Below the pieces are notes generated by a model. The model was not told the origin of the DNA. It searched no databases and saw only the letters and a list, made by a program, of their open reading frames with translations. A stretch of DNA of 64,000 bases, taken from a virus. The stretch lies in the IMG/VR virus record IMGVR_UViG_3300028845_000328; one strand, written 5' to 3'. How positions within the stretch are numbered: position 1 is the first letter of the stretch; every line of letters starts with the position of its first letter. Both the position numbers and the translations under genes were made by a program. Shown here piece by piece: positions 9,968 through 47,458 of this stretch.

Positions 9968-11454
9968 ACGAAGTTTATTCCACGAAGTCTCATTTTGATG
10001 TAATTGTTCTCCAATTCAAACCGGATAATCCTGCAAATTTAAGTAGTCGTTTCAAGACGGATGAAATTCAGGAGATCGGATCAGGAATCAAGATTCCTAC
10101 CGAGTTCATAAACTCACTTTCCTATTCTGACCATATCGAAAATAGCTCATTCTCAATTTCAATTTCTGATGGCGGAATGAAATGGATTGAAACACTAACC
10201 GGGAAAATCCGATTAAGGGAAATTTTAGACGAAGGGACAATCATCGTAATTACAGAGAACGGAAATAAGAAATTTGCAGGTAGGGTTAATTCAATTACTG
10301 ATTTAGGAAGCATTGAGGGTGAGGAAAACTATAAAGTTTCTGGAGGCGGTCTGGAGACTGCAATTAGTGAACAAACAATTTTTATAGATTATTCAGACGA
10401 AACAAAATCTACACTCGAAAAAACACCCGGAGTTGCGACGAATCTATCGGGAAAGATAAAAGCAGTTCTGAAAGAAATTGTAAAAGTAATCACAAATGCA
10501 AAAAACCCTACACTAATGCTCAAGAGTTTGTGCGATGCTGCAATCAATCAGTTATTGTCAAACGGGAAATACGGAGGATACCTTTTTAAACATATTTTAG
10601 ATTATGCCAATGGAACTTTGTCAAATGACACATACTCCAATAATTTTCTACATACACTTCAATGGCTAAACCAAGTTGGTTTTGGGAATACAATTTCATT
10701 CTGGAACTTAATGACTTCAATTGCCAAACCTCCATTATACGAGCTATTTGTTCATTATGATTCTGCAAGTGATTTGCATATAGATTCAGAGAAGACATTG
10801 GGAAAAAATGGGGAACTAACAGGGATAGATACAAGTATTTCAGCGCCTTTTGGTTACCTGGTTTTCCGGAAAACTCCACTAGACAAAATAAGAAATGAAT
10901 CCACGGATACCGGATTTGCGGTGAAAGTCCCTTGCAATATTTTAAGTTCCTTTGATTTTTCGTCTTCAACAAATAATATCTTTTCAGGAGTTCATATAAA
11001 TCTTGGTATTCTTGACAATATGACTTCTCTTGTCCTTAACCCTGTTACCTACAACCCAGTTTTACTTGGGAAATTCGGGCAGAGAGTTTTTAATGTAACG
11101 TTGGACGGGATCGGTTTTCCCAAGGACGCAACGACTGAAGCAGACAAAAAATCATTCAAGGATAAGATTGCTTCAATTCAGGATTTGCTTTATTCTGTTT
11201 TTGGTCAGGGTGACAGAATTGTGTCAGGATCAATTCACGGAACCTATATGAGAGGGATTTGCAAGGGACAATACATGGAAATTGTTTCCCCAAATGAAAT
11301 GGATTCTTTACCCAAACGATTGAGGCGGTATGACCCGCACTTTTATATCACAGGAGTCGATGTTACTTGGTCTCCTGGTTCAGGAATGGCAGATATGACA
11401 CTATCGGTAAAATGGGGAAGGAAATCTAACAGGAAAGAGGATTCAAGCTTTTAG
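9964..11454 (+). CDS. Baseplate hub protein (gp27/gpD-like)
   Basis: Size, position and beta-rich C-terminal fold pattern (FYITGVDVTW...MTLSVKWG); translationally coupled to the upstream gene. Confidence 0.55.
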   Translation: MNEVYSTKSHFDVIVLQFKPDNPANLSSRFKTDEIQEIGSGIKIPTEFINSLSYSDHIENSSFSISISDGGMKWIETLTGKIRLREILDEGTIIVITENGNKKFAGRVNSITDLGSIEGEENYKVSGGGLETAISEQTIFIDYSDETKSTLEKTPGVATNLSGKIKAVLKEIVKVITNAKNPTLMLKSLCDAAINQLLSNGKYGGYLFKHILDYANGTLSNDTYSNNFLHTLQWLNQVGFGNTISFWNLMTSIAKPPLYELFVHYDSASDLHIDSEKTLGKNGELTGIDTSISAPFGYLVFRKTPLDKIRNESTDTGFAVKVPCNILSSFDFSSSTNNIFSGVHINLGILDNMTSLVLNPVTYNPVLLGKFGQRVFNVTLDGIGFPKDATTEADKKSFKDKIASIQDLLYSVFGQGDRIVSGSIHGTYMRGICKGQYMEIVSPNEMDSLPKRLRRYDPHFYITGVDVTWSPGSGMADMTLSVKWGRKSNRKEDSSF

Positions 11455-11816
11455 AATTCCAACTTAGAATACCAATCCTCAAGTTCTTCATCTGAAGAAG
11501 TTTTCCGGAAAGCATGGTTTGTAAAATTGCATCCACAATTGGGGTGAGATGTGGCACATAGCCAATAGTCCTCCGGGGAACGGCCTACATTATTCTTTCC
11601 GGGCCATACTGCAATTGTTACACCATTTGGGTCATTAATTACAGAGTCATCCCCTCCATAATAATCAGACGATTCGAAGTCATCCCTACTTTTGAAAACT
11701 CTAGCAACAGTCCCCCAATGGCTAGAGCAAAAAACACAGGAAACCCTTTTTTTTCCCTTCAAAAATTCGTGCGTATGCGTTTCCGGTTCGTCTTTATAAT
11801 TATCCCAAAAGTTCAA
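11451..11816 (-). CDS. Stand-alone MuF-like C-terminal Cys/His module
   Basis: CVFC ... WPGKNNVGR ... HPNCGC; N-terminal EFLKG tag. Confidence 0.55.
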   Translation of the reverse strand: MNFWDNYKDEPETHTHEFLKGKKRVSCVFCSSHWGTVARVFKSRDDFESSDYYGGDDSVINDPNGVTIAVWPGKNNVGRSPEDYWLCATSHPNCGCNFTNHAFRKTSSDEELEDWYSKLEF

Positions 11817-12544
11817 TAGTGTTTCACCATTTCCGATAATATTTTTGAAAGATTATTTTTTGATGTAGTTAAATCTGAGTTCAATGAGGTGAAGGTGGCT
11901 GCGTTATTCGGAACTCCCGATGGATTTCCTGGAGCGCTACATGTCACGGTTATCAGTTTTATGGCATCATTCATAGCTTTGATTGTGTCAATCAACTGTT
12001 CTAACTGTGTTTTCAAGGTCTCTCCCTGCACTGCCTTTTCGAGTGAATTTATTGCTGGAGGGGAATTGACATTGATTTGAAATCGTATGGCTCCGGTTTT
12101 ATCTACGTGCTTCAAAATACCCTGATCCGCCCAAATCGTTTTATGGCCTGACTCATGACCGGCAGAGGTTTCATCCGGCTTATAATCGGTATTCGCATTT
12201 AGGTGCGCTTTTGTTGCCCGTCCTCCGTCAAACGGATAGACCTTTGTTATGATAGGATTGTCTCGCCTGTTTTGCAGGAATTCGACAAGAACAAATTGTC
12301 CAACGTAAAATCCATTTTTGAATCCAGATTGAAATCCTTTTTTACCATAATAAGGACCAGGTAAACGCAGCTTTTCGATCACTTGCCCATTGTGTAATTT
12401 CACATCGCAGCGATATTTAAGCTTAGGATATAATTTCCAGATTTGTCCAGGCTCCGGCCCGTTTAGAGCTGATGGCATTGACGGATTGCGTGCGTCCCAC
12501 TGAACAACTTGCCGTGGTCTGAATGATTCAAATAAATCCGACAT
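11813..12544 (-). CDS. Baseplate central spike (gpV-like)
   Basis: OB-fold-like N-terminus GQFVLVEFLQNRRDNPII; HESGH motif; AVQGETLK pattern. Confidence 0.7.
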   Translation of the reverse strand: MSDLFESFRPRQVVQWDARNPSMPSALNGPEPGQIWKLYPKLKYRCDVKLHNGQVIEKLRLPGPYYGKKGFQSGFKNGFYVGQFVLVEFLQNRRDNPIITKVYPFDGGRATKAHLNANTDYKPDETSAGHESGHKTIWADQGILKHVDKTGAIRFQINVNSPPAINSLEKAVQGETLKTQLEQLIDTIKAMNDAIKLITVTCSAPGNPSGVPNNAATFTSLNSDLTTSKNNLSKILSEMVKHY

Positions 12545-12551
12545 AGATTGT

Positions 12552-22595: not shown

Positions 22596-23388
22596 TTCGT
22601 TTCCTCTTCCTTTTATTCACATAATCCAAAATGTCTGCAAATAAAGCTTCTGCCAATTTGTTGCGAACTTCTGAATTTGCCATGACTGTATCTGCAACTT
22701 TCTGAAGTGTTTCCACAAATTTCTGTGGTTTGACGGCCGGATATGGCTTCCAATTTGATTCGGACGTAACCATAACAAGATTTTTCGTGACAGAACTTGA
22801 CCCGCCTTTTTCATTTTGTTGTCTAAAAATAACTGTGTTCTTTCCACCAATATATTTATCCCTTACCTGAACAGTAGAAGAAGCATATTTATTTCTGAGA
22901 ATAGTTTGCCCATCCTCCCCTTTCTCGCGATAAGTCCCTGTTATAGTAAGAACTGTCCTAAGCGACTCTTGTGGTTCAGTACCTCCTCCGGTTCCTGAAC
23001 TATTTTCTCTTGGGTTCATCGGTACAATTAAATATTTCTTCCCGTTGGCGCTGATTCGAACTTTTCGGGATTTCATCAGGCTGGCAACTATATCAAATTG
23101 CGGTCTCCCATCTTCTACTACCTTTTCGTAATTTTTGTTTCCCTTCGTCGGCTGATAGTAAATTTGGAAACCCAGCCTATTACGTTTGACTACGATTTGA
23201 CCATTTTTCAGATATTGAGCGCCCCACCAACCAAGACCGCCATCGTGAACCCTAACTCCGGATCGCTTTCCTGCCAAAAACTCCCATTTGTTTTTTATTC
23301 CTACAGCTTCTGAAAAAAGAAGTCCCCAGAACCGTCTGAAATCGTTCGGATTTGTGCTTACCCTTGGGAGAATATCAGCTATGTTCAT
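22588..23388 (-). CDS. Neck / tail completion protein
   Basis: Position and basic composition; KYLIVPM pattern seen in Twort-like neck proteins. Confidence 0.5.
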   Translation of the reverse strand: MNIADILPRVSTNPNDFRRFWGLLFSEAVGIKNKWEFLAGKRSGVRVHDGGLGWWGAQYLKNGQIVVKRNRLGFQIYYQPTKGNKNYEKVVEDGRPQFDIVASLMKSRKVRISANGKKYLIVPMNPRENSSGTGGGTEPQESLRTVLTITGTYREKGEDGQTILRNKYASSTVQVRDKYIGGKNTVIFRQQNEKGGSSSVTKNLVMVTSESNWKPYPAVKPQKFVETLQKVADTVMANSEVRNKLAEALFADILDYVNKRKRKRNG

Positions 23389-26126
23389 GTTTTTTTCTTA
23401 TATTTTGCGCTAAATTCTTTGATCGCCTGAGATGTTTTTGCTTGACTTGTTTTTTCCTTTGTGGTATTTTCAGAAATAGAGGAAGGGGAAGTCGTCTTGG
23501 ACGTTGAGTTTCGGGGGGAATTTCCCACTGTTACGTCCCCAACCTCGCCTTTTTGCTTGAACATTGTCTTTGGAACAAAGTCATTTCCTTTATTTCTAAC
23601 TTCTTCCACATAGAAAAATAGGTCTTTAATTGCCTTTTCATATCTTATCGTTTCAAGCCCCTGATGGGATTTTCCAACAGAATAAATTCTATTAGGATTT
23701 CCAATTATTTCAGGAATTTTTTGGAAATCTTCCTTTTTGACAGGTAACTGTCCTCTTAATTTTTCACGTCTTTCATTGCCATGCGAATTAAGAATATGTA
23801 TAACTTCATATTTAGTCAATAAATGCGATCCATCGGTTACAATTATTCCAAATTTTTCTTTTAGAAAGTCAGCCTCTTTTTTATCTATTTTTTTGATTAC
23901 TATTTCCTTAGCTGTGTTATCGCTAGAGGAAAAGCATTCATCAACAAAGTTTCTAATTTTTTCCTCAACCTGCCCTACGTTATCTTTTTTTGCGGTAATT
24001 TCAGATACTTCTGACCAACCATCAGCATTCTTCTTGTGTTTTTTCCCATCCGACCATGTATGGATTTCTCCGATATTAGCCTTAGAACGTTTTCTGCCTT
24101 TCAAAAATTCTAAGATGAATATTGCATTCTTGGATTTGAATAATAGCTCCGGTGTCATTGAATCAACTTTCAACTCGCTGAATTTTTTTTTCAGTGAATC
24201 CCTAAAAGCGGAAATCGAATTTATCACTACAGATAGCTTTTCCAGTTCCGTTTCGAGTGACGACTCTCCCTTGGTCGCTATAATCGAGGCTGCGAGTTTC
24301 TTAGCGCTATTTTCATTCAAACTTGTTACTGTGTCCCCAAGATATTTCTGGATAGGTTGTTGAATTTTCTTCAATAGATTTTCAAAGCCAACGGTTGCAG
24401 CTTTTGCAGAATCCTCACCTCCTGAGTATTTTATCGCCTCTCTTTCTACATCACTTTTTCCGGATGAATCTACAGAACCGAAATTGAAAGTTTGCGATTT
24501 GAGAGAAGAAATATACAACTTTACCTGAGAAGGAGTTATTCCTTTTGATTTATTCTGAGAATACCAATTAAATGCTTTTCTTTGAATCGTGCCGTTTTGG
24601 GTGCCGTCATCGTTCAAGCCATATCTTCCTAATACAATGGCAATTGTTTCATTAAGCGATTCTTTTTTCTCTTTTGACCCGTCATTTGAATCATCCTTCT
24701 TACGGATATTGTATTTAGCGTCCGTTCTGAGTAGGTCTTTCAATTCCGGAATAAGATTGTTTAGAGCAATAGTTCCTTTTACATATTCCTGAGATTCTCC
24801 GGTTCTTTGTGCAATTTCCTGTATAGTTTTACCCTGTTTGACCAGTGAGTCGTAAGCCTTTGCATCATCCAACCGTTCGACCTCGCGCCGATTTTTGTTA
24901 GCCGATACCTGTGCCAAAAGCCTGTCTGCTTCAGAATTATATTTTTCTTCAACAACTGGTACAGAAAAGTCGTTCGGGAGCAACCCATCTTTGATTAACT
25001 GTGATACTGCTTCAAACCTATGGTGTCCATCGACTACCCTATATTTCCCATCCGGTCCTTTATCGACCTTGAGTGGTTCCGCAACGTCATAACCATTTGC
25101 AAGAATGGAGTCTTTTATTCCGGAAATTATTTTTTCGTTGAAGTGCTTCTTGTCGGTATATTGCTCAATGGTCGTAATTTCAGAAGCTGGAGCATTTTTA
25201 ACTCTTTTTGAAACTTGCTCTTTCTTTTTTTCTTCGATTTTCTCCTTAATCTTCCTTATTTCATTAGATTTTTTTGTATTTTCGTCTTGACTTGTTTTTT
25301 CTTTTGTGATATTTTTGAATTTAGGGAGAGGGGGAACGTTTCCGGACGAAGGAGAGGGGTTGTTCTCAGGGACAACATCATTAGCTCGCCCCCCGACCCT
25401 TCTTTTATACATCGTCTTAACCGCTAATTCCTTACTTCCTGTCCTTACTTCTTCAACAACAATTAATATATCATCAATCCTTTTTTCATAACGAATTAAA
25501 TTGAGACCTGTTTTACTAAACCCACTTAGAAGTTCTATTTTATCAGGCAATATTAAAATTTCAGGTATTTTTTCAATATCTTCAGATGTTACTGGTAGCT
25601 GACCTCTTGGAATTTCAGTAGAAGCATTCCCATGATCTTTTATTATTTTTCTAACAGTATCATGGTCTATTGAATGTTTATACAATTTTACTTCATTGGC
25701 ATTGACGCCAATCTTTTCTAATATATCCTCTTCTTCTTTTGATATTTTTTTTATATATCTCCGTTTAAATCCACTTTTTACAGATAGTGCATTCTTTATA
25801 AAATCTTCGAATGATTCTCTATCATTAGATTCACTTGCGCTGCCGGAAATAACGGGAGGTTTTTCAGGTGGTTCTTCATTTCTACCACCACGATTAGAAA
25901 GTGCTAAGTTCTCTTTCGGAACGTTTAAAGAAGATACTATTTCATCATCTTTTTTGTTATTTACTACACTGAATTTTGTAGGATGAGATTTGTCATAAGC
26001 AGCTTTCGAATACCAGTATTTCCAGCGTCCATTACCCCACTCACGCTTATAGTATTTTGATCCTTCTACTTGCTGGCCTTTTCGGGCCTTTAGGAATTCT
26101 TTTATTATTTGGAGAGATTCGCCCAT
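23385..26126 (-). CDS. Polyvalent protein: tag - PBECR3-like - ParB-like - TWxDG - PBECR3-like
   Basis: Two HG...RGQLPV..ED..KIPEI...IRYEK...VEEVR...KTM.K domains flank a ParB core VVDGHHRFEA. Confidence 0.75.
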   Translation of the reverse strand: MGESLQIIKEFLKARKGQQVEGSKYYKREWGNGRWKYWYSKAAYDKSHPTKFSVVNNKKDDEIVSSLNVPKENLALSNRGGRNEEPPEKPPVISGSASESNDRESFEDFIKNALSVKSGFKRRYIKKISKEEEDILEKIGVNANEVKLYKHSIDHDTVRKIIKDHGNASTEIPRGQLPVTSEDIEKIPEILILPDKIELLSGFSKTGLNLIRYEKRIDDILIVVEEVRTGSKELAVKTMYKRRVGGRANDVVPENNPSPSSGNVPPLPKFKNITKEKTSQDENTKKSNEIRKIKEKIEEKKKEQVSKRVKNAPASEITTIEQYTDKKHFNEKIISGIKDSILANGYDVAEPLKVDKGPDGKYRVVDGHHRFEAVSQLIKDGLLPNDFSVPVVEEKYNSEADRLLAQVSANKNRREVERLDDAKAYDSLVKQGKTIQEIAQRTGESQEYVKGTIALNNLIPELKDLLRTDAKYNIRKKDDSNDGSKEKKESLNETIAIVLGRYGLNDDGTQNGTIQRKAFNWYSQNKSKGITPSQVKLYISSLKSQTFNFGSVDSSGKSDVEREAIKYSGGEDSAKAATVGFENLLKKIQQPIQKYLGDTVTSLNENSAKKLAASIIATKGESSLETELEKLSVVINSISAFRDSLKKKFSELKVDSMTPELLFKSKNAIFILEFLKGRKRSKANIGEIHTWSDGKKHKKNADGWSEVSEITAKKDNVGQVEEKIRNFVDECFSSSDNTAKEIVIKKIDKKEADFLKEKFGIIVTDGSHLLTKYEVIHILNSHGNERREKLRGQLPVKKEDFQKIPEIIGNPNRIYSVGKSHQGLETIRYEKAIKDLFFYVEEVRNKGNDFVPKTMFKQKGEVGDVTVGNSPRNSTSKTTSPSSISENTTKEKTSQAKTSQAIKEFSAKYKKKT
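23441..23470. repeat. 30-bp direct repeat, copy 1 (28/30 identical to 25286..25315)
   Basis: cttgacttgttttttc[c/t]tttgtg[g/a]tatttt, encoding N(T/I)TKEKTSQ after each PBECR3-like domain. Confidence 0.8.
25286..25315. repeat. 30-bp direct repeat, copy 2
   Basis: See copy 1 at 23441..23470. Confidence 0.8.
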
Positions 26127-26135
26127 TGAGGTATG

Positions 26136-33966: not shown

Positions 33967-33997
33967 GACGAACGACATGACCTATATTTTATTGCAA
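33967..33997 (-). promoter_or_regulatory. Late-promoter-like motif TTGCAA-N18-GTTCGTC
   Basis: Near-match heading the protease-scaffold-MCP operon. Confidence 0.55.
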
Positions 33998-34007
33998 GTT
34001 TTTTTTG

Positions 34008-34037
34008 TTGACATAATTATTTTTTTATGGTTTCGTC
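34008..34037 (+). promoter_or_regulatory. Late-promoter-like motif TTGACA-N17-TTTCGTC
   Basis: 9 nt upstream of GTG 34047; divergent from 33967..33997. Confidence 0.7.
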
Positions 34038-34046
34038 TTTCTGTCA

Positions 34047-34385
34047 GTGGGCAATACTCCGATACAAATACAGGATTTGGATAGCATAGATAGAGAGATT
34101 TTTAGTTATAATGTCTCTCAGGCAGAGTTTTTTATGATTCATGCAACTATAGATAGGATCGTAGAACTATCCCAATCAAATAAACTAATGGTAACTCCGT
34201 CACAGATCAGAACTTTAAAAATTATCAGAAAAAAACCTACTTACCTAACAATATCTCATAGAAATTCAATCATTGCGATCTTGAATTCAGTGATACTCCG
34301 AAATAGAGAAAAACGAGGGCAATTGTATGAGGCTTTATCCTATAAATCGAAAGCAATTATTCCGAGAAAGAAACAATCTTCGTGA
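34047..34385 (+). CDS. Hypothetical protein
   Basis: Track ORF directly after a promoter motif. Confidence 0.55.
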   Translation: MGNTPIQIQDLDSIDREIFSYNVSQAEFFMIHATIDRIVELSQSNKLMVTPSQIRTLKIIRKKPTYLTISHRNSIIAILNSVILRNREKRGQLYEALSYKSKAIIPRKKQSS

Positions 34386-34509
34386 AAAATTTTTACAAGC
34401 TTACCAGCTTTTAGACACTAACGAAAAATCCGCAGTCAAAGCTCTAAAAAAACTTGGGTTTAAAGTTGAGTGCTGGGAATTACTGGAAGATAAATGGGTT
34501 CTAAATTAG
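34327..34509 (+). CDS. Hypothetical protein
   Basis: Track ORF overlapping the previous gene. Confidence 0.4.
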   Translation: MRLYPINRKQLFRERNNLREKFLQAYQLLDTNEKSAVKALKKLGFKVECWELLEDKWVLN

Positions 34510-34568
34510 TATTCTCGGTTGATCAATTGGTCAGACGAGAATACTAACTATAAATAAGTTTTTGTGAA

Positions 34569-34823
34569 CTACAGCCTCTTTATGTCAATTGCTCTTATCT
34601 GATCAACGCCCTTTTTAGGATTAAATGAAGTTATTGTTTTGAAAGTGACGCGAATACCTTCTTTAATATTTTTCTGATGTATTGAGGAGTCTTTTCCGAA
34701 AAAGAAATAGTCCACTTGATCCTGATCGTTCGTGATGAAACCATAACCACCCTTTTTCCCGGGCTCGGCATTATGGTCATACTGAAAGTATTTTTTAATT
34801 GTTCCAGTTAAATAATTACTCAT
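34569..34823 (-). CDS. Cold-shock-domain (OB-fold) nucleic-acid-binding protein
   Basis: GTIKKYF...GYGFIT...DYFFF (RNP1/RNP2-like), EGIRVTF, AIDIKRL. Confidence 0.75.
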   Translation of the reverse strand: MSNYLTGTIKKYFQYDHNAEPGKKGGYGFITNDQDQVDYFFFGKDSSIHQKNIKEGIRVTFKTITSFNPKKGVDQIRAIDIKRL

Positions 34824-35416
34824 TTTGATTTTCTTTCCTTTAAATTTTTTATATCAACAACTTTATTTGAAAAAATAAGTTCTCTATGGTGATGTAATAT
34901 TGATTCTTCTGAATTTCCAAATGAAATTAATTTTCCAATTGAATTGAATCCCTTATTGAAGAAAAACATCGCAACGCCTCGATTCCATGAACCGTACGAG
35001 TAAACTTCTACAATAGGAGGATGGTTGGATATGATATGGATACTCAATGCTGCAAACGACTGAATAAATTGTGACAAATGGAAGAAATTAGCATACATTA
35101 CAAAAAAAACAAACCCAAACAAAAACCATGAATACACCCATTCACTATTGTAACAATATATGGACAAAGCGGAGAGGATGATTATTTTCGCAAAGAACTG
35201 AATGAATCCGTTTATCATAAATCGATTTAACAGAATAGAAAATCTTTCCTTATATCCACCCAGTCTAAAAAAAAACATCACGGTTTTTTCGTGCCATCGA
35301 TTCATGTGTTTGTTGTAAACATTCCGAATCAAACTTAATTTCTCGAAATGGTTTTTGATTATTTGCTCCCTTACTCTTTTCTTTTCAAAATTTGTTGGAC
35401 TGTATTTTTTTGACAT
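34820..35416 (-). CDS. Membrane protein
   Basis: Two central TM segments; start re-called at MSKKY with a GGAG SD. Confidence 0.55.
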   Translation of the reverse strand: MSKKYSPTNFEKKRVREQIIKNHFEKLSLIRNVYNKHMNRWHEKTVMFFFRLGGYKERFSILLNRFMINGFIQFFAKIIILSALSIYCYNSEWVYSWFLFGFVFFVMYANFFHLSQFIQSFAALSIHIISNHPPIVEVYSYGSWNRGVAMFFFNKGFNSIGKLISFGNSEESILHHHRELIFSNKVVDIKNLKERKSK

Positions 35417-35432
35417 TTTCTCTCCTTTAATT

Positions 35433-36386
35433 TTATAACATGGCCATACGGATTGGATTGTATCTTGAGCTGTGATTTTCATACCATTGTTTCAACTTAT
35501 TTTCTAATTCCAAAATCCTGGCTCCATACATTGCACTGGTTGCTGATTGAGTTGTCGAAATTGATTCAGATAGCACACCTACACCGATTGAGAACGATGC
35601 TACGCCGGCTGCTCTACCATCCCCGAAAACAGACATTACCTTAATCGCGACAATCATACCTATCACCTGCCTAAGGTCTGCGGGGACTCTGTCAGCAGAA
35701 TCATAACCGGCGATATAGTCTATATAATGTGTTGCCGGTAATTTTGTAGCCGGATAACCACCGAATACTCTAGTAGAGCGCATGGCAACATTTTTGTTGT
35801 AGGAAAACCCAAGGCCTAATGCACCAACATTTCTTAGTTCAGCAGTTTCGTATTTGATCTTTGCTCGGCTGGTCATATCCATAACAATACCGTTTGGTTC
35901 GCCATTTTCGTCTTGTGCAACCGGATTCACGAAATCCCAGTTCAATAGCCGTATTAATGGCCTGTGTCTTAGCTCAATGTAGAAGTTATTCCCTAAATCT
36001 TGATTCTCATAGTCATGCGCATCATACCATTCCGCGTGTGGCTCAATATATCTAGGTATATTCCCCTTCGGACGGTATCTGTAAACAGTAGGGTAGATTT
36101 CGTGTTGTAGCTCTCTTGATAATGCCTTTGTGGTTTCGTGAACCCAACCGCGAAGGTTTTCATCTGTTATATATGACCCGTCTACAGTTACAAGCCGTCC
36201 ATTTCCGTTCATCCATGAATACCGAATTTCATCTGGAGTTACTATTTCTCCCCAACCGATTCCTGGGCTTGGAATTTGCAATGATGGGTCAAGCGGATTC
36301 CTTCCAACATATAACCGTTCCAGTAAATTTCTATTTGCTTCACGATCCGGATTATCGAACAAGAATCCTTTCTTAATCTTAGCCAT
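35433..36386 (-). CDS. Head-tail connector / head completion protein
   Basis: YIAGYDSADRVPADLRQVIG...SIGVGVLSES adaptor-like pattern. Confidence 0.7.
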   Translation of the reverse strand: MAKIKKGFLFDNPDREANRNLLERLYVGRNPLDPSLQIPSPGIGWGEIVTPDEIRYSWMNGNGRLVTVDGSYITDENLRGWVHETTKALSRELQHEIYPTVYRYRPKGNIPRYIEPHAEWYDAHDYENQDLGNNFYIELRHRPLIRLLNWDFVNPVAQDENGEPNGIVMDMTSRAKIKYETAELRNVGALGLGFSYNKNVAMRSTRVFGGYPATKLPATHYIDYIAGYDSADRVPADLRQVIGMIVAIKVMSVFGDGRAAGVASFSIGVGVLSESISTTQSATSAMYGARILELENKLKQWYENHSSRYNPIRMAML

Positions 36387-39300
36387 TTGAGTCCGCCTTC
36401 TTCGATTTCAGAAAATTGAACATGATTATTTTGGCTCTCGCTCCTGATTTTTTAATTTCCTTTACGCCAAGCATTTCAAGAACTTCGGCAATATGATTTG
36501 TTACAATTTCACTTAGGGAAAACTTTACTCTCTTCGCCTCCGTTTCCTTCAATTCTTTTTTAAATTTCTCGATATATTCATCTTTCTTCGTAGTTTGTAA
36601 TTCTCGCGATTGCTCTAATAGCCTATCAGCTTCATCTTGAGATTTTTTGACAAATGCGCGTGCAGTCTCTACCGCATTAAAGGATTTCCTCTCCAATTGC
36701 TGAGTTTTGATACTTATTTTTGTTTTTAGAGCAGAAATATCTTTCTTAATTTTGTCAATTTCTGCTTTATTCTCTTTCAGGAAATCAGCTTCATCGTCAT
36801 AACGCCACCAACTATTTCCTACTTCCTTTCCAGATTCTTCATATTTATCAGGGTTCTTTATGTATTCCATGAATAAAGGGACTTCATCCAGTGATTCCTT
36901 TAGTGAAGTGCTTCTACTATCGAGAAGGTTTTCAGCTTCATCTAGATCATCTAAAATTCCTTGAACAGCAAACGCCCTTGACTGAGCATCCTTTGCTTGT
37001 GCTCTGATCCGCCCGCTTTCTTCCTGCAATACCAATTTTGCCTTTCTCTCAGGGTCTTTAATAATATCATATTTCAACTCGTCTGGGTTTATTTCAGATA
37101 CATCGATTGCAGGGGATCCAGTGTTTTTAAAAATATCATTAATCCGAGATATTTTTTCTCCCTGTTTTTGGTATAATTTTGAATCAATCGAATCCTCCAT
37201 GAGAACATCTACCCACATTGTTTTCTTGAGCTTATTTCCTGGTCTGTGAGCGCGTCCGCGTTTTTGAACTTCGGTTGTTGGATTCCAGTCGATCGAAGTA
37301 TTATAGGCTATCCCGGTATATTTATTGAGGGAGACACCTTCCTTGATTACATCAGTTCCAAGAATAATCCTGCATTTGCCATCCGGATTATTGAAATCTT
37401 TTGTGATTTCTGTAAACCTGGAGAGACCTTTCGCTTTCATTGAAGAATCCCTTGCAGGTGTAGTTTTGGTTTTTGTATCCATTATTTCGATAGCATCACC
37501 AGGAATTCCTTGGTCAACCAGATATTGTTTTATTTTCTGTATATGCTCCACACCCTTCGGCATGAACATGATTTGACCTGGGATAGGTTCGCCTGGTCTT
37601 AGCTCCCGATGCTTATAGTATAATCCTGCAATCGAATCTGCAATAAATTTTAGTTTTGGGGAACGCTCAACTACATCGGCAGTTCCAAGATGGTTAATAT
37701 CAGAGAATTTTTTCCAAATATCTGCTTTTCCGGGTTTCACCAATGCAGGAGATATTCCCATCATTTGTTGCGTACCAATTGAAACTAAAGGCGCTGCACC
37801 GGATGGTTTTCCAGAAGGGTCTTTTTCATCATACATTTCTTCAAGACGATCTCTCATAAGTTTCTGTTCTTCTGATAGAGGCAATACGACAGCCTTCATT
37901 TTTAATTCTGGGCGCTCTACTCCATTTTCATCCCCTTGCTGAAAATCGAAATACTCCCTTACCAAAGATTGGAAGGCGTGACCATTTTTGAAATTCCGGA
38001 CAACTTGCTTTTGCTTTATTTCCCCATTCCCCTCAATTGTATTCTCCCATGTAGTTTCAACAAATGTAGCAATGAAATCCCTGATATTGTAAATCCCCAT
38101 GTCTCGAAGACGTTTTTTTGCTACGATGGAAAGAAGAGAATATACCTGTAATGGATTATTTGTAAATGGTGTAGCTGTTAGTAAAAGTACATTTCTGTCT
38201 TGATTTTCTTTAAGTATGTGTTGAGCTGCAAGATATAGTTTTATCCCCCTTGCGGATGGGCTTCCACTTGTGATCCCACTAAACTCATTTGCCTTTACGG
38301 AGGCTTCTTCTTCATCAGAACTAAGCTTATTGACTCCTCCCAATTGGTCTTTCTTCTTTATATCAACAAAGATATTGTTAAAATTGTGAGCTTCGTCCAC
38401 TGTTATCATGTCGAATCCAGCGTCATCAAATTTCAGAGCAGCTTCAGTTCCAATAGTTGCCACGCCAACCAATTCTTGTATCTGTTCGTCGTCCTGGGCT
38501 TTACCGCGCTTCCCTTTTTCATTGTCTGGGTTGACTATCTGATCTTTTAGGTCATTTGTTAACTCATTGAATCGATTTTCAGAAAAACCAAATCTCTGGA
38601 ACGCATCATAAGACATTATCGTTACAGTGCCATCATCAACTTCGAATTTTCCAGAGTTAGATTTCAATTGGTCATTGAGTTCTGGAGTCCCGATCATTTG
38701 TGATTTTACATTCGGGAAGCGTTCCTTGAATTCAAGTGCCCATTTTTGGAGAACAGATGTAGGTACCACTATCAGAGGTTTTTTAGCTTTACCTGTTTGG
38801 ATAGAAGACACGTTGGCCATCATACCAGTCCATGTTTTCCCGAGTCCGACTTCATGGGTCGCGCATCCAACACCTTTTGTCATATATTCCCCGACAAATC
38901 GCATCTGAATACCTCTGGGGTCTTGATCCTTATCCTTATATTTTCGATTCATCCCTTCCAATACAACTGGTATTTTATTCGAATCAATCTTGGCTACTGA
39001 ATTGAACTGGTCATTCCATTTCTCTGAGAGTTCTTTTTGGTCTTCGTCGGAAAGAATTTCATTTATAAATTGTTTGAAAAGTTTCTCAGCCTGAATCTTG
39101 CGTTCTTTCCTTCTTCTCTGATTCTCCTCAGCGTCGCGACCTGTGACCTTCTCGCCCAATGTGTAGGATTTAATATCCATTGCCGAGCAATCAGTCCCCT
39201 GGAAATATTCCCTTGGCAATCCACCTTCGTAATGAGACAGACCTCTTGAATATCCATAGTCCCGATAGACAGGAGTTCCCAAAACATAATCGAAGAATTT

Positions 39301-42180
39301 TTCAGTTATTTTTTTTCCATCTTGAAAAACCAAAGATTGAACAAATGGTTCAAGTGGAGACAAAACAAGTTTTGACATGTCTATCTTCTTTGGAGTAGCC
39401 GATTCGAGAGCTTTTTTTTGCCTATGATATTGCTCTTCTCCATACTTGTTGATAATGCTATCCTTTGATTTTTCAAGCGCAAATAGCTTGTCTTTGATAT
39501 TCCCGGATTGGTAGATGTATGCCGGCACGAAATCAAACTCTCCATTTCTTCCTTCTACCAGAGCCATCCGATCCTTATCAAAAGGGAGATTTTTTATTCT
39601 ACCGATTGGATCCATGTTTCTGACAATCTCAATATCTTTTTCATCGAAAGACTTATTGAATTTCTTATTAAATTCAGCCTGTGTGTAGAGATTTCTAGGG
39701 TCTATTATTGATGAAGAGTCTTGGATTTTTTCCTTCTTAATTGCCTTAGTCGATTTCTCAGCATTTTTGTTCCCCTTAAGACCTTCTGAAATGGAATTCT
39801 TTGTTTCCTGACTCATCGGTTCTTTAGGTTTTGGCAATTCTAAAGCTATAAAATCTTCAACGTTTCCTTTGATAAATGTTTCTTCCCTTCCAAATCGATT
39901 AATCCTTTTTTCTTCAGAACCAATTATATGCTCCGGATTTTCTTGAAAATATTTCCCTCCGAAAACCAACTTATTATCCTTCTTATTAGAACTGTTTTTC
40001 CTTAAGATAATAATATCGGTTCCAATCCCAGTATTTCCGAACGAACCTTCAGGGAGACGATACGATTCCAAAAGCTCAGCCTTCTCGAAGATTTCCTTTT
40101 TCCAGTTTTCCTCTCCTGCATTCATGAAACTGGACGGTACAACGTAGGCTAAAACTCCACCTTCTTCAAGAGTATCAAGGCCCCTAGAAATGAAATAGTG
40201 TTCATATCTTTTATACCCCTTTCCTTCAATCGCTTTATATCTTCCAGTCATCGCTCCATAAGGAGGGTTTCCAGCAACTAGCCCGTATTTTTTACCAGAA
40301 TATTTATTCCCTAGTGACCGATTTTTCTTATCGATAAACATGGTTTCAAAGGCATTATCTGAAACATTTGCATCTGGGTGAAGAATTCTTGCAATCTGAT
40401 AGGCAGTGTTATCATCAGGATTGTATTCAAGCATATCCCAGCGGTAATTCGTATTTTCGGCAAATCGTCCTATTCCTGCGGCTGGCTCAAGAGCATCCAC
40501 GTCTGGTTTAACATAACGAGATACTATTTCCTGCATTTTTGAAATTACCTTCCTCGGAGTAAAGAACTGGTATAACATCCCGCGAGTAGCTTCCGCATCT
40601 TTATTTGTAGTCTGACCGCCAGAACCCTCATACCTCCGAAGGATTTCCTTTTGTTCATCAGTAATTTGGTATGGAGGCGTAGAAGATAAAATTTGCTTGC
40701 ATTTTTCGTTGATTTCGGCCTGTTTTTTTTGCGACCACTTTTGTTTCACACCAGAAACAGCGTCAATTGCAGAATCGTTTATTTTTTCAGGCAAAGAACG
40801 GTCATCTTTTTTAGCGTTCTGATTTCCTTTCATTGCCTCAGATCGAGACTCAGGATGTGGTACGAGGTAATTATTGTTGTTGACAGAATTCCACCATTGG
40901 TATAAATTACTTTTTAGGGGAGAAAGTTTCCGGCCTTGATTAGTCGGGGGAGCGCTCCCCTTATTTATTATCTCTGATTCAACGAACTCATTGTCATAAA
41001 AGTAATCACCATTATTATTTTCACGGATGATTATTCTGATAAATTCATCTTTTCCATTAATTCTTACCTTTGAACTATAATTATGATAAGCAATAATATT
41101 TTTGTCTTCATTTTTCATATTGGATTCACTCCACAAATAAGTCCCTTTTTGCAATAGTTCTGGTAATTGCGGGATGACACTTATTGTTCGGTTATCAGCA
41201 CTGTGAAAGAATATTTCCTTGAATCCCTTAGTTGAAAATTTGACTTTCCTGCCATCTTTCGTTATAGGAGTTTCGTCTCTTATTTTATCGAATTCATCTT
41301 TTGATATTTTCAGCCTGTCCTTAACATTCAAATTCGGAGGCAACCAACTGGAATCTATGATAACCGGTTCTTGACCAAGTAGTTCTTTCTTTTTTTCTTC
41401 TTTATCTTCTGGTTGCTGTAAGTAATAATTGGATTTTCCAAGCCTTATTCGTCCGTCGCCTCCAGGTTTCCCAAATCCGATTCCAGAATCCCTGCGTATG
41501 CTATCAGGTTTTCCAGCGTTACCGTTTTGTTCTCCATTTTGCAGATTCTTTCCAGTTGCGTAGATACCCACTCCTGACTGTAGTTTTTGAGTTCCAGAAA
41601 CTGGCTCTCCTGTATTTCCTTGTATAGCTGGTCCGATAATTTCTGATCCATTATTTTGCCTCTTCCCATAAATATGATAGAGCTTTCGGAAAATTGACGA
41701 TTTGTAACCACTTTCGGAAGATGTTTTCGATTCTGTTTTTGCTATAACAGCAGTGGCGTAATTTCCGGTCGTTTCGTCCATTTCTTTTGCAACCGGAGTA
41801 TTTTTGGCAACATTTGCAAGCTTTTCCTCTTCAGCAAACCTTGCATCGTATTTTTCCTTGAACTCAAAGTATTTTGTAAAATGTCTTGTCCATTCAGGCA
41901 AGCTGATTCCATCTGTACCGATATTTTTTTTCTTGTACTCATATATGGCTACATGCTCCGGACTACTCGATTCTCCTATGTTGAAATATTGAAGTAGCTT
42001 ACTAATTAATGTTTGGTGGTTTGATTGATGAGTCGCTGGGTGCTCGCTATCATATTCTGTCTTTGTATACCAGTATTTCCAACGGTTATTTTTCCATTCC
42101 CGTTTGTAATATTTGGCTCCCTGCCTTTGTTCGCCTTTGCGACTCTTCAAAAATTCTTTTATCGTCTCATTTGCATTCAT
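36379..42180 (-). CDS. DarB-like polyvalent protein: tag - LPD3-like - adenine MTase - SNF2 helicase
   Basis: LEPAAGIGRF, GNPPYG, HEVGLGKT, DEAH, EVQKRGRAHR; upstream VKFSTKGFKE...GDYFYD LPD3-like domain. Confidence 0.85.
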   Translation of the reverse strand: MNANETIKEFLKSRKGEQRQGAKYYKREWKNNRWKYWYTKTEYDSEHPATHQSNHQTLISKLLQYFNIGESSSPEHVAIYEYKKKNIGTDGISLPEWTRHFTKYFEFKEKYDARFAEEEKLANVAKNTPVAKEMDETTGNYATAVIAKTESKTSSESGYKSSIFRKLYHIYGKRQNNGSEIIGPAIQGNTGEPVSGTQKLQSGVGIYATGKNLQNGEQNGNAGKPDSIRRDSGIGFGKPGGDGRIRLGKSNYYLQQPEDKEEKKKELLGQEPVIIDSSWLPPNLNVKDRLKISKDEFDKIRDETPITKDGRKVKFSTKGFKEIFFHSADNRTISVIPQLPELLQKGTYLWSESNMKNEDKNIIAYHNYSSKVRINGKDEFIRIIIRENNNGDYFYDNEFVESEIINKGSAPPTNQGRKLSPLKSNLYQWWNSVNNNNYLVPHPESRSEAMKGNQNAKKDDRSLPEKINDSAIDAVSGVKQKWSQKKQAEINEKCKQILSSTPPYQITDEQKEILRRYEGSGGQTTNKDAEATRGMLYQFFTPRKVISKMQEIVSRYVKPDVDALEPAAGIGRFAENTNYRWDMLEYNPDDNTAYQIARILHPDANVSDNAFETMFIDKKNRSLGNKYSGKKYGLVAGNPPYGAMTGRYKAIEGKGYKRYEHYFISRGLDTLEEGGVLAYVVPSSFMNAGEENWKKEIFEKAELLESYRLPEGSFGNTGIGTDIIILRKNSSNKKDNKLVFGGKYFQENPEHIIGSEEKRINRFGREETFIKGNVEDFIALELPKPKEPMSQETKNSISEGLKGNKNAEKSTKAIKKEKIQDSSSIIDPRNLYTQAEFNKKFNKSFDEKDIEIVRNMDPIGRIKNLPFDKDRMALVEGRNGEFDFVPAYIYQSGNIKDKLFALEKSKDSIINKYGEEQYHRQKKALESATPKKIDMSKLVLSPLEPFVQSLVFQDGKKITEKFFDYVLGTPVYRDYGYSRGLSHYEGGLPREYFQGTDCSAMDIKSYTLGEKVTGRDAEENQRRRKERKIQAEKLFKQFINEILSDEDQKELSEKWNDQFNSVAKIDSNKIPVVLEGMNRKYKDKDQDPRGIQMRFVGEYMTKGVGCATHEVGLGKTWTGMMANVSSIQTGKAKKPLIVVPTSVLQKWALEFKERFPNVKSQMIGTPELNDQLKSNSGKFEVDDGTVTIMSYDAFQRFGFSENRFNELTNDLKDQIVNPDNEKGKRGKAQDDEQIQELVGVATIGTEAALKFDDAGFDMITVDEAHNFNNIFVDIKKKDQLGGVNKLSSDEEEASVKANEFSGITSGSPSARGIKLYLAAQHILKENQDRNVLLLTATPFTNNPLQVYSLLSIVAKKRLRDMGIYNIRDFIATFVETTWENTIEGNGEIKQKQVVRNFKNGHAFQSLVREYFDFQQGDENGVERPELKMKAVVLPLSEEQKLMRDRLEEMYDEKDPSGKPSGAAPLVSIGTQQMMGISPALVKPGKADIWKKFSDINHLGTADVVERSPKLKFIADSIAGLYYKHRELRPGEPIPGQIMFMPKGVEHIQKIKQYLVDQGIPGDAIEIMDTKTKTTPARDSSMKAKGLSRFTEITKDFNNPDGKCRIILGTDVIKEGVSLNKYTGIAYNTSIDWNPTTEVQKRGRAHRPGNKLKKTMWVDVLMEDSIDSKLYQKQGEKISRINDIFKNTGSPAIDVSEINPDELKYDIIKDPERKAKLVLQEESGRIRAQAKDAQSRAFAVQGILDDLDEAENLLDSRSTSLKESLDEVPLFMEYIKNPDKYEESGKEVGNSWWRYDDEADFLKENKAEIDKIKKDISALKTKISIKTQQLERKSFNAVETARAFVKKSQDEADRLLEQSRELQTTKKDEYIEKFKKELKETEAKRVKFSLSEIVTNHIAEVLEMLGVKEIKKSGARAKIIMFNFLKSKKADSNG

Positions 42181-44182: not shown

Positions 44183-44237
44183 CTAATTTCTCTTTTTAGT
44201 TCTGAGATATGATATGATTGAATTGTCAAACATTTTA

Positions 44238-45764
44238 TTAACCAACCCTGAACCTCCAGTCACCTGCGGATGTGTCATAAATAGAACGATAGCATTTGTA
44301 GTTTTCCAGGACAGAGTATTCATTAAGTAGCGGAATCGTGATAAATGGATTGAAATCAGAGATAATTTCAAAAGAGTTATCAAGATCAAAGATGCTTGAA
44401 ATAGATTGAAAAGAGTTCGGAATGCAAATCCATAGATACATTTGTCCCGTGCTTGCACCGAACAAATAATCACCAGATGTTTTATCTTTATATGCAAAAT
44501 TCTGTAATGCAATTATTTCTGAACCATCCAGTATGTCGTCTCCGTAACCCCAATAGATTTTTTTTGTTGCCGTCGCAGGAGATACAGTTATTTTACTCCC
44601 TTCAATATCTGCGTCTGATTCCGTAAGAATGCTATCAAAAATTTCTCCAATGTCAATTGTAGTTTGAGACTGCCGTAGAATCCATTTTCTCGGCTGATTT
44701 TTTTTTGCCAATGCCGATATAGTTGATGATGGTAGAACTACGAATTTTGGATTATATCCATAAACGATAGTCAGTTTATCTGGAATGTTTTTTGTTTCTA
44801 CCTTCACAAAACGAAAATTCACTATTGAATACTCTTGATCGCTGAAGCTTTTTTTTTCTGAATGCAGGGAATAGATTTCCCTAAGCGGAGTATATTTCAC
44901 AGGGAATAGCCCATTAGAATTTCTCCTAATTACCTCTGTCTCGGTCGCAAGCGACAATGTGGAAATAACAATATCACCCTTTGATAAATTAATGTTTGAC
45001 CCAACAATTGCGTCCAAATCACCGGCCTGAATATCAAAGCTTTTATCGGCAAGCCTTTTATCCCGCGAATCAATCGTTCTATACCCTAGCTTTATTGGAG
45101 AATATGTTAGAACTGAAATGTTGAATTTTCGACCCTTTTCTGAGGGAACTGGGAGAATAATATTTTTGTAATCAGTTAGGCACTCCTTCAATTCAGTATA
45201 ACTGCCGTTAGGTTCCATTCTCCAAACAGATAGAACCTTGACAATAATATCTGGGTAAATTCCTAAGTCCAAAATTTTTCCATCTTCATTAAGACCGAAA
45301 TCCCTATAATCAATTTTCTGTACTGCATTGACCTCATAATCACAATCTACCTGCATGTAGTCCTCAAATTCCGGATTCGGTTTTATTTCGATTGTATTTC
45401 CCGAAAATCTAATAACTTCTAATTTTATATTTCCGCCAAAATCGTAATTTCTGAAAACCTCAAGCGTTCTGATTTTACTTATAGGGCCGAAACGGGTATA
45501 GAGAAGACTTCCATCCATATCTTGATTTTGGAGTGTCTCTATTGGCAGGCGCCGCGTCCTATCTACACGATATATTAATTGTTTATCACTTGGCAATGGC
45601 ATCCTATTTTCTTCTGTATTTTCTGGATTCGGAAGTGGCCTGATCCAAATAAACGATTCCCCTTGGCGTTCAATCAGATCATCTGGTGGATTTGGATTAA
45701 ATACAGAAGGTCCAGGTGAAACCTCAAACGGGTTCGATCCTCCGGTTAAATACCGCTTAGCCAT
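44238..45764 (-). CDS. Head closure-like structural protein with C-terminal extension
   Basis: IERQGESFIWIR N-terminus; GDLDAIV...KGDIV; C-terminal beta domain. Confidence 0.5.
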   Translation of the reverse strand: MAKRYLTGGSNPFEVSPGPSVFNPNPPDDLIERQGESFIWIRPLPNPENTEENRMPLPSDKQLIYRVDRTRRLPIETLQNQDMDGSLLYTRFGPISKIRTLEVFRNYDFGGNIKLEVIRFSGNTIEIKPNPEFEDYMQVDCDYEVNAVQKIDYRDFGLNEDGKILDLGIYPDIIVKVLSVWRMEPNGSYTELKECLTDYKNIILPVPSEKGRKFNISVLTYSPIKLGYRTIDSRDKRLADKSFDIQAGDLDAIVGSNINLSKGDIVISTLSLATETEVIRRNSNGLFPVKYTPLREIYSLHSEKKSFSDQEYSIVNFRFVKVETKNIPDKLTIVYGYNPKFVVLPSSTISALAKKNQPRKWILRQSQTTIDIGEIFDSILTESDADIEGSKITVSPATATKKIYWGYGDDILDGSEIIALQNFAYKDKTSGDYLFGASTGQMYLWICIPNSFQSISSIFDLDNSFEIISDFNPFITIPLLNEYSVLENYKCYRSIYDTSAGDWRFRVG

Positions 45765-45972
45765 TTGGCCCCACGCAATGCAAATTATCTTCCCTGCAAA
45801 AATTCAGACATTCATAATAATTTTCCGAATAAAAAAGAATTAATCCATCTGGAATTCTGGTTACCTGGTATCGGATTACTCTTTTAGAAATTTCATAGTT
45901 CCCAAACTTTAAAAGAGTTTTATAATATTCAACCCATACGATTCCAACCTTTACTCTATCCGAATCTGTCAT
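45757..45972 (-). CDS. Hypothetical protein
   Basis: Track ORF, translationally coupled. Confidence 0.45.
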   Translation of the reverse strand: MTDSDRVKVGIVWVEYYKTLLKFGNYEISKRVIRYQVTRIPDGLILFYSENYYECLNFCREDNLHCVGPNG

Positions 45973-46451
45973 TCCCTGAATTCCCCCAATTTTATTTTAT
46001 TTAGAAACCATTCGATATAAAGTGCTAAATCCTGATCAGATAGTTGAGCAGCATCATAATAAGGAATAGTTTCACCGTCTTGTTTCTTGACGTAAAGAAG
46101 AACGGCGCTTACTAGCTGGTATTTTTTTCTGTAAATATCGCCATAAATTTCCTCAATCATACTTTCCGGTGAACGAAAATAATCTTTTAATTTCCGGAAC
46201 GGATTTAATATAACTGAATGTGGAGGTCTTTTGGCTTTATGCAATTTAGTTGCATTTTTTTTTGCTTCTTCGATTAAGAACTCCAGTCTATCAATCAAAT
46301 CTATAAAAAGACACTTCCAATTCCAGTTTCTCCAATATTCATTATCATTGGGACTACCAGGAGAAATATTTGAAATTTTTACGGAATCCCTTCCTTTGCT
46401 TATTTCATTTCTTACCCCTTCAAATAGTTCATTTATTTCAAATTCAGTCAT
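45969..46451 (-). CDS. Hypothetical protein
   Basis: Track ORF, translationally coupled (TAATG). Confidence 0.55.
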   Translation of the reverse strand: MTEFEINELFEGVRNEISKGRDSVKISNISPGSPNDNEYWRNWNWKCLFIDLIDRLEFLIEEAKKNATKLHKAKRPPHSVILNPFRKLKDYFRSPESMIEEIYGDIYRKKYQLVSAVLLYVKKQDGETIPYYDAAQLSDQDLALYIEWFLNKIKLGEFRE

Positions 46452-47458
46452 TACAATCCTCTAATTCCACGCTGAAATACAAGATACTCAATCCCGGATT
46501 CATGTGCAGCCATTATCACACCAGCGTTATATGCCATAGCGGATTCAGTGAATGCAAATCTTTTAAAATTTCTATTCAACCTCATTGTTAATAGTTCTGA
46601 TTCCTTCCCATTAAGTATCTGTAAATACTCATCTTCAGACATTTTACCTTTTTCTACAAGCGAATAAAGGTCAGGGAAGGCCATTTCTGACTGCAATTCT
46701 TCTACCGACTTATTGTCTCTTATCGAATCAGCTATCATGTCACCCCACATTTTTCGCAGGTAAATGTAAGGCTTTCCTCCTCTCTTGGGTTGGCCGTTCT
46801 CATAAATAATATTTCCATTTTCATCTCGGTCATATACTGCTATCCAATCTGCTGAATTAGATTTTGACCATGTTTCTGCAAGATTTCGAATCCTGTTTTT
46901 GTCGAGCTTGTCCTCCATCAATTCCGGATCATCCAGGCCAACTCCAAGCTTAAACGTAAAAGCCCTATCGTAATCTTCAATTCCCATTGAATTCACTGTT
47001 TCCACTGGCAGTTTTAGCGCACCCGTCAGATAACCAGACAAATATCCCAGAAAAGTTCCAGTGTCTCCTATTTCTTTATAAACTGGATTCCAGTCATTTT
47101 CCAGATACCTAAATAGCCAGTCATCATATTCCTCTGAATCAAATGTTTTGATTTTGTTTTCAGGAGGTATGTCGCCTGAACCAGAATTATCTATTTGCAA
47201 ATCAACTTTTGGCCTACCTTCCGTACGCGGTTGTTTATCAAATAGCTTTTGTAAAAATTTAGGAAGGTGTCTCTTCCCCCAACTAAAGAGACCTTTTCTG
47301 ATGTATAAATCAGATGCCTTGATACTGATTTTATCAGGGCCAAGCGCCTGATATTCAATCCATTTCAAGTAGTCGGCAACCAATAGCTGGAATTGCCGAC
47401 CTGCTCTCGATTTTAAGAACGGACTTTCCTTAGAGTCCCAGGGATTGGAATAGATCAT
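46451..47458 (-). CDS. MuF-like minor head protein lacking the C-terminal Cys/His module
   Basis: RNFKRFAFTESAMAYNAG resembles the MuF RIAxTE...N.G motif; ends about 20 aa later; near the portal. Confidence 0.6.
   Translation of the reverse strand: MIYSNPWDSKESPFLKSRAGRQFQLLVADYLKWIEYQALGPDKISIKASDLYIRKGLFSWGKRHLPKFLQKLFDKQPRTEGRPKVDLQIDNSGSGDIPPENKIKTFDSEEYDDWLFRYLENDWNPVYKEIGDTGTFLGYLSGYLTGALKLPVETVNSMGIEDYDRAFTFKLGVGLDDPELMEDKLDKNRIRNLAETWSKSNSADWIAVYDRDENGNIIYENGQPKRGGKPYIYLRKMWGDMIADSIRDNKSVEELQSEMAFPDLYSLVEKGKMSEDEYLQILNGKESELLTMRLNRNFKRFAFTESAMAYNAGVIMAAHESGIEYLVFQRGIRGL

Follow-up and report, generated by a model that had tools for sequence, protein, structure and literature searches.

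The virus record IMGVR_UViG_3300028845_000328 of IMG/VR, analysed here as one stretch of 64,000 nucleotides (nt; hereafter the window), is an LE1-type Leptospira phage or plasmid. Two of its open reading frames (ORFs), which encode proteins of 335 and 121 amino acids (aa), appear from comparison with relatives to be the separated parts of a single ancestral minor head protein of the MuF superfamily and are referred to below as the N-half and the C-half. The reading that probably accounts best for the pair as a whole is that a protein of the SPP1 gp7/Mu gpF kind was cut, that its C-half was relocated, and that the two polypeptides assemble again. A preliminary description, made from the letters of the window alone, had proposed such a fission, and the proposal holds: single chains of relatives cover both ORFs in order and without overlap.

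Both genes are found at the coordinates and on the strand first assigned to them (Table 1), and the motifs EFLKG, CVFC, WPGKNNVGR and HPNCGC are all present in the 121-aa ORF. Among the PHROGs, the 335-aa ORF matches phrog_3759 over its full length (1e-72) and the 121-aa ORF matches phrog_24695 over its full length (6e-44) in addition to phrog_4610, all of them families of unknown function; no Pfam family is hit by either ORF at E≤1. The N-half ends in ...LNRNFKRFAFTESAMAYNAGVIMAAHESGIEYLVFQRGIRGL*, seven residues past its last strand. The C-half starts with a TTG codon that overlaps the stop codon of the upstream 243-aa gene (TTGA), with GGTGA located 7 nt upstream. Both ORFs are intact and have invariant cores in the alignments of their close relatives, which number 13 and 16 for the two families and in which the Cys and His residues are invariant. 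In a deeper set of N-halves L294, N295, R296, R300 and A302 are invariant and Y325 is nearly so, while Y325, F328 and G331 are invariant among the close relatives; in the C-half H91 and C94, which align with the NCRC motif of gp7, are invariant in 53 sequences. The C-half gene is present in every LE1-type relative examined, with 46–74% identity. In LE1 itself the orthologues of both ORFs (52–54% identity) are situated at 10493..11461 and 44228..44605, about 33 kb apart. Each half occurs once in the window, where no second copy of either was found, and no remnant of a C-half is present beside the N-half, as the two small ORFs in that slot are dissimilar to C-half modules.

The fission is established by profiles of the two families, A1 for the C-half and A2 for the N-half. 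An exhaustive search with A1 returned 115 proteins, many of them 350–480 aa in length and matched near the C-terminus, with E-values down to 1e-28 for those of 412–481 aa and, over the whole library, down to about 1e-25 for the single chains that both profiles match. A2 matches single-chain relatives with E-values down to about 1e-32 (Z set to 1e6), covers the stretch immediately before the A1 match in the same chains, and ends at the break. Examples are P0045 (436 aa, N-half match 3–288, C-half match 294–392), P0049 (481 aa, 2–302 and 314–402), P0063, a Leptospira andrefontaineae protein (475 aa, 62–284 and 293–391), and P0047 (471 aa, 85–296 and 299–387), and the same order of matches is seen in P0040, P0055, P0051 and P0033. 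The gene for P0045 directly follows a terminase gene whose product is close to the terminase of the window (5e-152). Because the matches are ordered, do not overlap and fall on the same single chains, the comparison shows that one gene has become two: the 121-aa ORF corresponds in alignment to the C-terminal portion of MuF-like single chains, and the 335-aa ORF is not a complete protein of this kind, its profile match ending at the break. All forms share the pattern ...LNRDWxRIAxTE...NNG...Y(V/F)xF...C-x-x-C...G..(V/A)R(L/V)F...AVWPGKNNVGR...WW.C.P.HPxC, and in the Leptospira genes the cut falls after the Y.xF strand and before the CxxC.

Intermediates between the fused and the dispersed state are also found. 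The halves are adjacent genes on the same strand, N-part first, in LinZ_10, LbrZ_5399, Lin_34, LalZ_80412 and LnoZ_CZ214, and such adjacent pairs are likewise present in L014, L015 and L016. In LinZ_10 the GTG start of the C-half overlaps the stop codon of the N-half. In LalZ_80412 (L003:4112-5647, KF114876) the two halves share a frame, with a single TAA and then two codons between the N-half and a TTG, and in LnoZ_CZ214 (L001:5134-5685, KF114877) a TTG is located 6 nt past the N-half stop. The annotated start of the C-half of LnoZ_CZ214 is an internal Met that would omit the CxxC; this annotation is probably wrong, the TTG being the better fit. Programmed frameshifting or readthrough need not be invoked for these adjacent-type relatives, since a GTG or TTG start lies within a few bases of the N-half stop. 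A split intein with trans-splicing was rejected as well, because the break leaves no room for intein blocks (the N-half tail has 7 residues and the C-half lead 26 residues before the CxxC) and because the inteins of relatives are inserted elsewhere, at HPN|C. Intein-like sequence follows directly after HPN in the relatives P0031, P0037, P0038, P0050, P0068, P0086, P0090 and P0099, all outside the window. It is of the type C-[YLF]-S-x-D-T-x-V-L-T, gives HINT or LAGLIDADG Pfam hits in P0031, P0037 and P0068, and is inserted at the invariant zinc-ligand Cys.

That the two proteins were never one gene and owe their likeness to convergence or to a shared domain, or that one of them is a pseudogene remnant, is hardly credible given these data. 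The absence of a Pfam domain from both ORFs and their assignment to separate PHROGs would fit such a view, but both profiles match the same single chains in order, adjacent-gene intermediates exist, and the fused P0063 is the sister of the standalone P0066 in a tree of the C-modules (support 97/94). A pseudogene remnant is furthermore at odds with two ORFs that are both intact and conserved.

The preliminary description had called the pair MuF-like. This stands as remote homology, supported by an alignment to the gp7 family and by the predicted fold of a fused relative, but Pfam Phage_Mu_F hits neither half, so that no closer link than remote homology can be claimed. PF04233 (gathering cut-off 29.6 bits) is the commonest Pfam family among 61 fused relatives, with 14 of them matched at E≤1 and a best value of 1.4e-6; the scores that were inspected individually are all below the cut-off (24.6 bits for P0105 and 20.9 bits for P0079). 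In P0105 the match extends over residues 251–394 and over profile positions 3–110 of 112, and includes both the ARTE motif and the C-half match, which places the break inside the Pfam MuF domain. When the fused core is aligned by hhalign with 19 members of the SPP1 gp7 family, all of which belong to PF04233, a probability of 81% and an E-value of 1.2e-5 are obtained locally and an E-value of 1.4e-6 over 195 columns globally. The motifs fall in register, ARTE on ARTE, CxxC..G on DxRTRxxHxxLDG and HPxCxC on NCRC.

Structure prediction is consistent with this placement. The model of P0045 (predicted local distance difference test, pLDDT, 75; predicted template modelling score, pTM, 0.73) has no Foldseek match in the PDB at E≤0.001; its best matches in BFVD are models named 'minor capsid protein' and 'phage head morphogenesis domain', and in the ESM Atlas it matches clusters that are 90–100% PF04233, with template modelling scores of 0.42–0.51. 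An AlphaFold2 model of the 335-aa ORF, built with 16 close relatives, reached a pLDDT of 51, too poor for a fold search. As in SPP1 gp7 and Mu gpF (MuF1, PF04233, TIGR01641), the N-half gene is located just downstream of the portal gene (in the order portal, 208-aa gene, N-half), a neighbourhood that the C-half gene does not share, and a small C-terminal module with a Cys motif at its end comes after an ARTE-type helix. The gp7 protein binds the portal and is present in 1–2 copies per capsid (published work summarised in PMC5576092). Unlike gp7, whose module reads DxRTRxxHxxLDG...NCRC, the module described here is of the form CxxC...HPxC with an inserted WPGKNNVGR block; unlike both model proteins, it is encoded apart from its N-terminal partner, by a gene about 35 kb away, and PF04233 scores neither polypeptide. 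The family thus reads, from its sequences and models, as a divergent branch of the MuF superfamily and not as a member of PF04233.

As relatives carry the protein as one gene or as two neighbouring genes, the halves probably rejoin as proteins. Such complementation in trans had been suggested at the outset, and its support comes from a structural model of N-half residues 105–335 together with the C-half. This model scores 0.67, compared with 0.00 for the best of three controls; a score of this level is reached by 58 of 80 solved complexes and by 2 of 110 mismatched pairs, counts that apply roughly since custom alignments were used here. Agreement between runs extends to at least 56% of contacts, and the pLDDT of the partner is at least 62. 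The tightest predicted contacts are those of N-half residues 324–328 (EYLVF) with C-half residues 34–40, and helix 300–319 is predicted to pack on C-half residues 70–75 and 86–103. The strands that would pair are the ones that flank the break in the single chains (E282–286 and E311–315 in P0045). The model is silent on affinity.

A further feature that may connect the C-half with the head is a short motif, F-x-K-[GSA], located in an extra N-terminal stretch of about 20 residues or more. It is present in 11 of the 11 close C-half relatives with a complete N-terminus, whereas untagged standalone C-halves begin 2–13 residues before the CxxC; among C-halves it is confined to the LE1 type. The related pattern F[LIV]K[GSA] occurs 10 times in the 69 genes of the window (3.2 in residue shuffles), and 7 times in a terminal position, that is, at most 25 residues from the N-terminus or at most 16 from the C-terminus, compared with an expectation of 0.51; none of 2000 shuffles reached 7. 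All 10 occurrences are found in a 286-aa protease-like protein, a 255-aa scaffold-like protein, three polyvalent proteins and the two MuF halves. Since the pattern was chosen after the data had been seen, conservation of the tag positions in the LE1 orthologues, which is indeed found, is the better test. By analogy the motif is probably a prohead-protease site or a packaging signal, and its presence on the relocated C-half suggests that this protein is still delivered to the procapsid and would reside in the capsid.

The N-half had also been credited with such a tag, PFLKS. The EFLKG of the C-half is real and conserved, but the N-half counterpart was rejected because it is not conserved: in relatives the position reads FLQY, FLRG or FLSY, so that neither K nor S is retained, and ESPF, which occurs in fused relatives too, is part of the family's own N-terminus. 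On the protease-like, scaffold-like and three polyvalent proteins (window 23385..42180) the motif often takes the form E/N-F-L-K-[GS]-[KR]-K and is placed 10–18 residues from the N-terminus or about 7 from the C-terminus. The polyvalent proteins are encoded among the head genes, and those of 1933 and 913 aa have a common N-terminal lead, ...KEFLK[SA]RKG...YYKREW.... In phage T4, a capsid-targeting sequence and prohead-protease sites are present on internal proteins. The likeness to T4 is one of analogy only: in both cases a short shared motif is located about 10–18 residues from the N-terminus of proteins presumed to be packed in the head, large enzymes included. Unlike in T4, the motif is F-x-K-[GSA] here, no homology is implied, and targeting or cleavage is putative.

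The genomic setting of the two halves differs between types of relatives. In the untagged standalone type (LinZ_10, L014 and L015) TerL is followed, in this order, by small genes, the N-half, the C-half, a small ORF (missing in LinZ_10) and a homologue of the 508-aa gene. In the LE1 type, represented by the window, LE1, L018 (Leptospira sp. GIMC2001) and the metagenomic L017, a 243-aa spike-like gene precedes the C-half, and this pair converges with the genes for the 618- and 496-aa hub proteins. The 618-aa protein has a sub-threshold Pfam match to Phage_tail_tube_init (23.6 bits, cut-off 27). The preliminary description linked the split to the rearrangement that inverted the neighbouring hub genes. 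The position of the C-half at this point of convergence is borne out in the window and in three genome-scale LE1-type relatives, but the block that is inverted relative to the remaining tail genes differs between the window and L017, and the 1-kb contig L013 has the order 496, C-half, 243 on one strand; in LinZ_10 the 618, 243 and 496 homologues are co-directional. A link between relocation and hub rearrangement, in whichever direction, is plausible. Elsewhere among the head genes, a major-capsid-like 513-aa protein (29280..30821, minus strand) begins, as does LE1-0024, with a basic stretch followed by about 25 hydrophobic residues, which is unusual for a capsid protein.

Table 1 Coordinates of the two candidate MuF-like halves, their motifs and related genes in the window
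Feature	Position (nt)	Strand	Remarks
N-half of the split MuF-like minor head protein, 335 aa	46451..47458	-	phrog_3759 over full length; helical body, ending just past the last beta-strand before the break
Apparent counterpart of the MuF 'ARTE' helix, NRNFKRFAFTESAMAYNAG, residues 295–313	46520..46576	-	aligned by hhalign with the ARTE motif of the SPP1 gp7 family
Terminal strand IEYLVFQRG, residues 323–331	46466..46492	-	predicted to pair with the first C-half strand
C-half of the split MuF-like protein, 121 aa	11451..11816	-	phrog_24695 over full length and phrog_4610; tagged N-terminal extension and CxxC...HPxC module
F-L-K-G, residues 18–21 of the C-half, in the N-terminal extension	11754..11765	-	putative prohead-protease site or capsid-targeting tag
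CVFC (C27, C30), first putative zinc-ligand pair	11727..11738	-	invariant among close relatives, nearly so in 53 modules
HPNCGC (H91, C94, C96), second putative zinc-ligand pair	11529..11546	-	apparent counterpart of the MuF C-terminal NCRC
Portal protein, expected docking partner of a MuF protein	48082..49830	-	Pfam Phage_portal 5e-10, phrog_12
160-aa and 71-aa ORFs, in the slot of the C-half gene of adjacent-type relatives	45757..46451	-	unrelated to C-half modules
508-aa gene, conserved downstream neighbour of the MuF-like gene(s)	44238..45764	-	homologues after the C-half in LinZ_10, L014, L015 and L010
243-aa baseplate spike/hub-like gene, translationally coupled to the C-half	11813..12544	-	phrog_33385, weaker baseplate PHROG matches
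Hub block, 618 aa (tail-tube-initiator-like) then 496 aa	8111..11454	+	opposite strand, converging on the C-half gene
Polyvalent protein, 1933 aa	36379..42180	-	LPD3, N6-methylase and SNF2 helicase
Polyvalent protein, 977 aa	26332..29265	-	InPase and Zeta-toxin kinase
Polyvalent protein, 913 aa	23385..26126	-	PBECR3 and ParB HTH

A tree of 53 C-modules places the tagged type as one clade of 15 rows (support 94/87), with P0035 lacking a firm placement. Fused and untagged standalone forms are interleaved, which forces at least 2–3 changes, and all of the more distant rows, which resemble PF04233, are fused forms. The history probably began with a single chain that was split (or re-fused) repeatedly at one joint and whose C-module was relocated once, in the LE1 clade. 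The same tree and gene order could be taken to mean that the C-module of the LE1 clade acquired a role of its own at the baseplate, in hub or spike, such as that of a small zinc protein, and that the N-half alone suffices as a portal-associated head protein. In the window, LE1, L017 and L018 the 243-aa spike gene and the C-half form a conserved, coupled cassette, the C-half of L013 stands in an operon, between the 496 and 243 homologues, and a single tagged clade agrees with one relocation followed by long retention at the new site. This explanation is nonetheless unlikely, though not far-fetched. The strand, the Cys/His ligands and the WPGKNNVGR block of the C-half are as conserved as in the fused forms, its tag is found elsewhere on head- or cargo-region proteins and on no tail or baseplate protein, and the N-half, which stops exactly where those of adjacent-type relatives do, has acquired no substitute for the C-module. 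Moreover, the adjacent N+C pair of L016 is itself situated among baseplate genes, so that position alone says little.

A small Cys-rich half-MuF gene could also be an accessory 'moron' that acts in phage–phage or phage–host conflict and is no structural partner of the N-half. Many C-modules do stand alone, and some are fused to domains characteristic of conflict proteins, nuclease or LPD3. Yet the window and the four LE1-like records that were searched contain no complete MuF domain, no membrane anchor is visible in the C-half sequence, and the presence of the gene in all LE1-type relatives examined, at the identities given above and with an invariant core, is the behaviour of a core gene rather than of a moron, which makes this possibility very unlikely.

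Several observations weigh against reassembly of a relocated MuF protein, the explanation preferred here. Membership in the MuF superfamily is argued transitively and from sub-threshold matches between sequences: PF04233 finds nothing in either window ORF (E≤1) and nothing in six-frame translations of four LE1-like phage records, and single halves align only weakly with gp7 by hhalign (E 0.36 and 0.068), though at the right motifs. The adjacent-type relatives have no Pfam MuF hit either. The alignments used for the complex contained pieces cut from single chains, so the model may replay intramolecular contacts. In every tagged genome examined, the C-half is encoded among baseplate hub genes, a position that would also fit a tail-related or independent role. 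Finally, C-modules fused to LPD3 or PBECR1 occur without an N-half in the same polypeptide, indicating that the module can work in other contexts. In L011:4103-6596 (GCA_020440925.1) the gene after that of the N-half encodes 531 aa, with a PBECR1 nuclease domain ahead of the C-half module and hence with cargo at the break, and in L010:293-1591 a 432-aa protein of LPD3 plus C-half, with no N-half sequence, occupies the slot before the 508-aa homologue.

With these points weighed, reassembly after fission and relocation can be set out as a mechanism. The ancestral state would be a single chain, cut inside the MuF domain between the EYLVF strand and the CxxC that opens the C-module, with the CxxC...HPxC module probably binding zinc. 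In one branch the cut would have left two neighbouring genes coupled in translation; within the LE1 clade the C-module gene would have come to lie after the baseplate spike gene and would have acquired about 20 further N-terminal residues, with F-x-K-[GSA] among them. Both polypeptides would be made late, and the C-half would dock on the N-half by strand complementation, thereby rebuilding the MuF fold. Within the procapsid the heterodimer may then be placed at the portal or close to it, and the tag could be recognised or cleaved there.

A more far-reaching idea, which we consider rather doubtful, is that the break is a functional docking joint. The portal-bound N-half would be the socket, the CxxC...HPxC module would serve as a portable plug whose inserted strand completes the fold, passengers could be loaded via the plug (compare the PBECR1 and LPD3 fusions of relatives), and a plug encoded among baseplate genes could time or limit completion of the portal complex.

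MuF proteins, effector fusions and gene fission are already known, and a literature search of incomplete coverage turned up no report of a MuF domain divided at this position or of halves encoded far apart. Among the closest systems are MuF polymorphic toxins and polyvalent proteins linked to MuF (Jamet et al. 2017, PMC5576092; Iyer et al. 2017, PMC5512222). As in these, single-chain relatives carry C-terminal effectors, namely InPase, Top1B, NUDIX and DUF5662, and three polyvalent proteins are encoded in the window. Unlike in the polymorphic toxins, neither half in the window has an effector domain, and cargo and MuF protein are separate genes, while the L011 relative has its cargo at the break. 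The nearest counterparts of the two genes are LE1-0012 (N-half) and LE1-0041 (C-half) of Saintgironsvirus LE1 (BX571876), which have the same two locations and neighbours. In that record they are annotated as unknown or misleadingly, and are linked neither to each other nor to MuF. Several product names in it seem to stem from spurious motif matches, namely 'thymidylate synthase' for LE1-0012, 'bZIP transcription factor' for LE1-0040 and 'NADH-ubiquinone oxidoreductase' for LE1-0042.

Few phage head proteins are as widespread as those of the MuF/gp7 kind, which anchor many injected toxins and enzymes and for which the PDB search made here returned no solved structure. The comparison indicates that their domain has been cut at one point more than once and that the pieces can be encoded side by side or far apart; the recurrence of the cut marks this point as a domain boundary and a probable strand-complementation interface. 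For LE1-like Leptospira phages and plasmids, two 'hypothetical' families would thereby receive a function, and the misleading labels in the LE1 record can be corrected. The effect on phage biology is probably modest unless the break does serve as a docking joint, and a testable route is suggested by which cargo proteins may join the portal complex.

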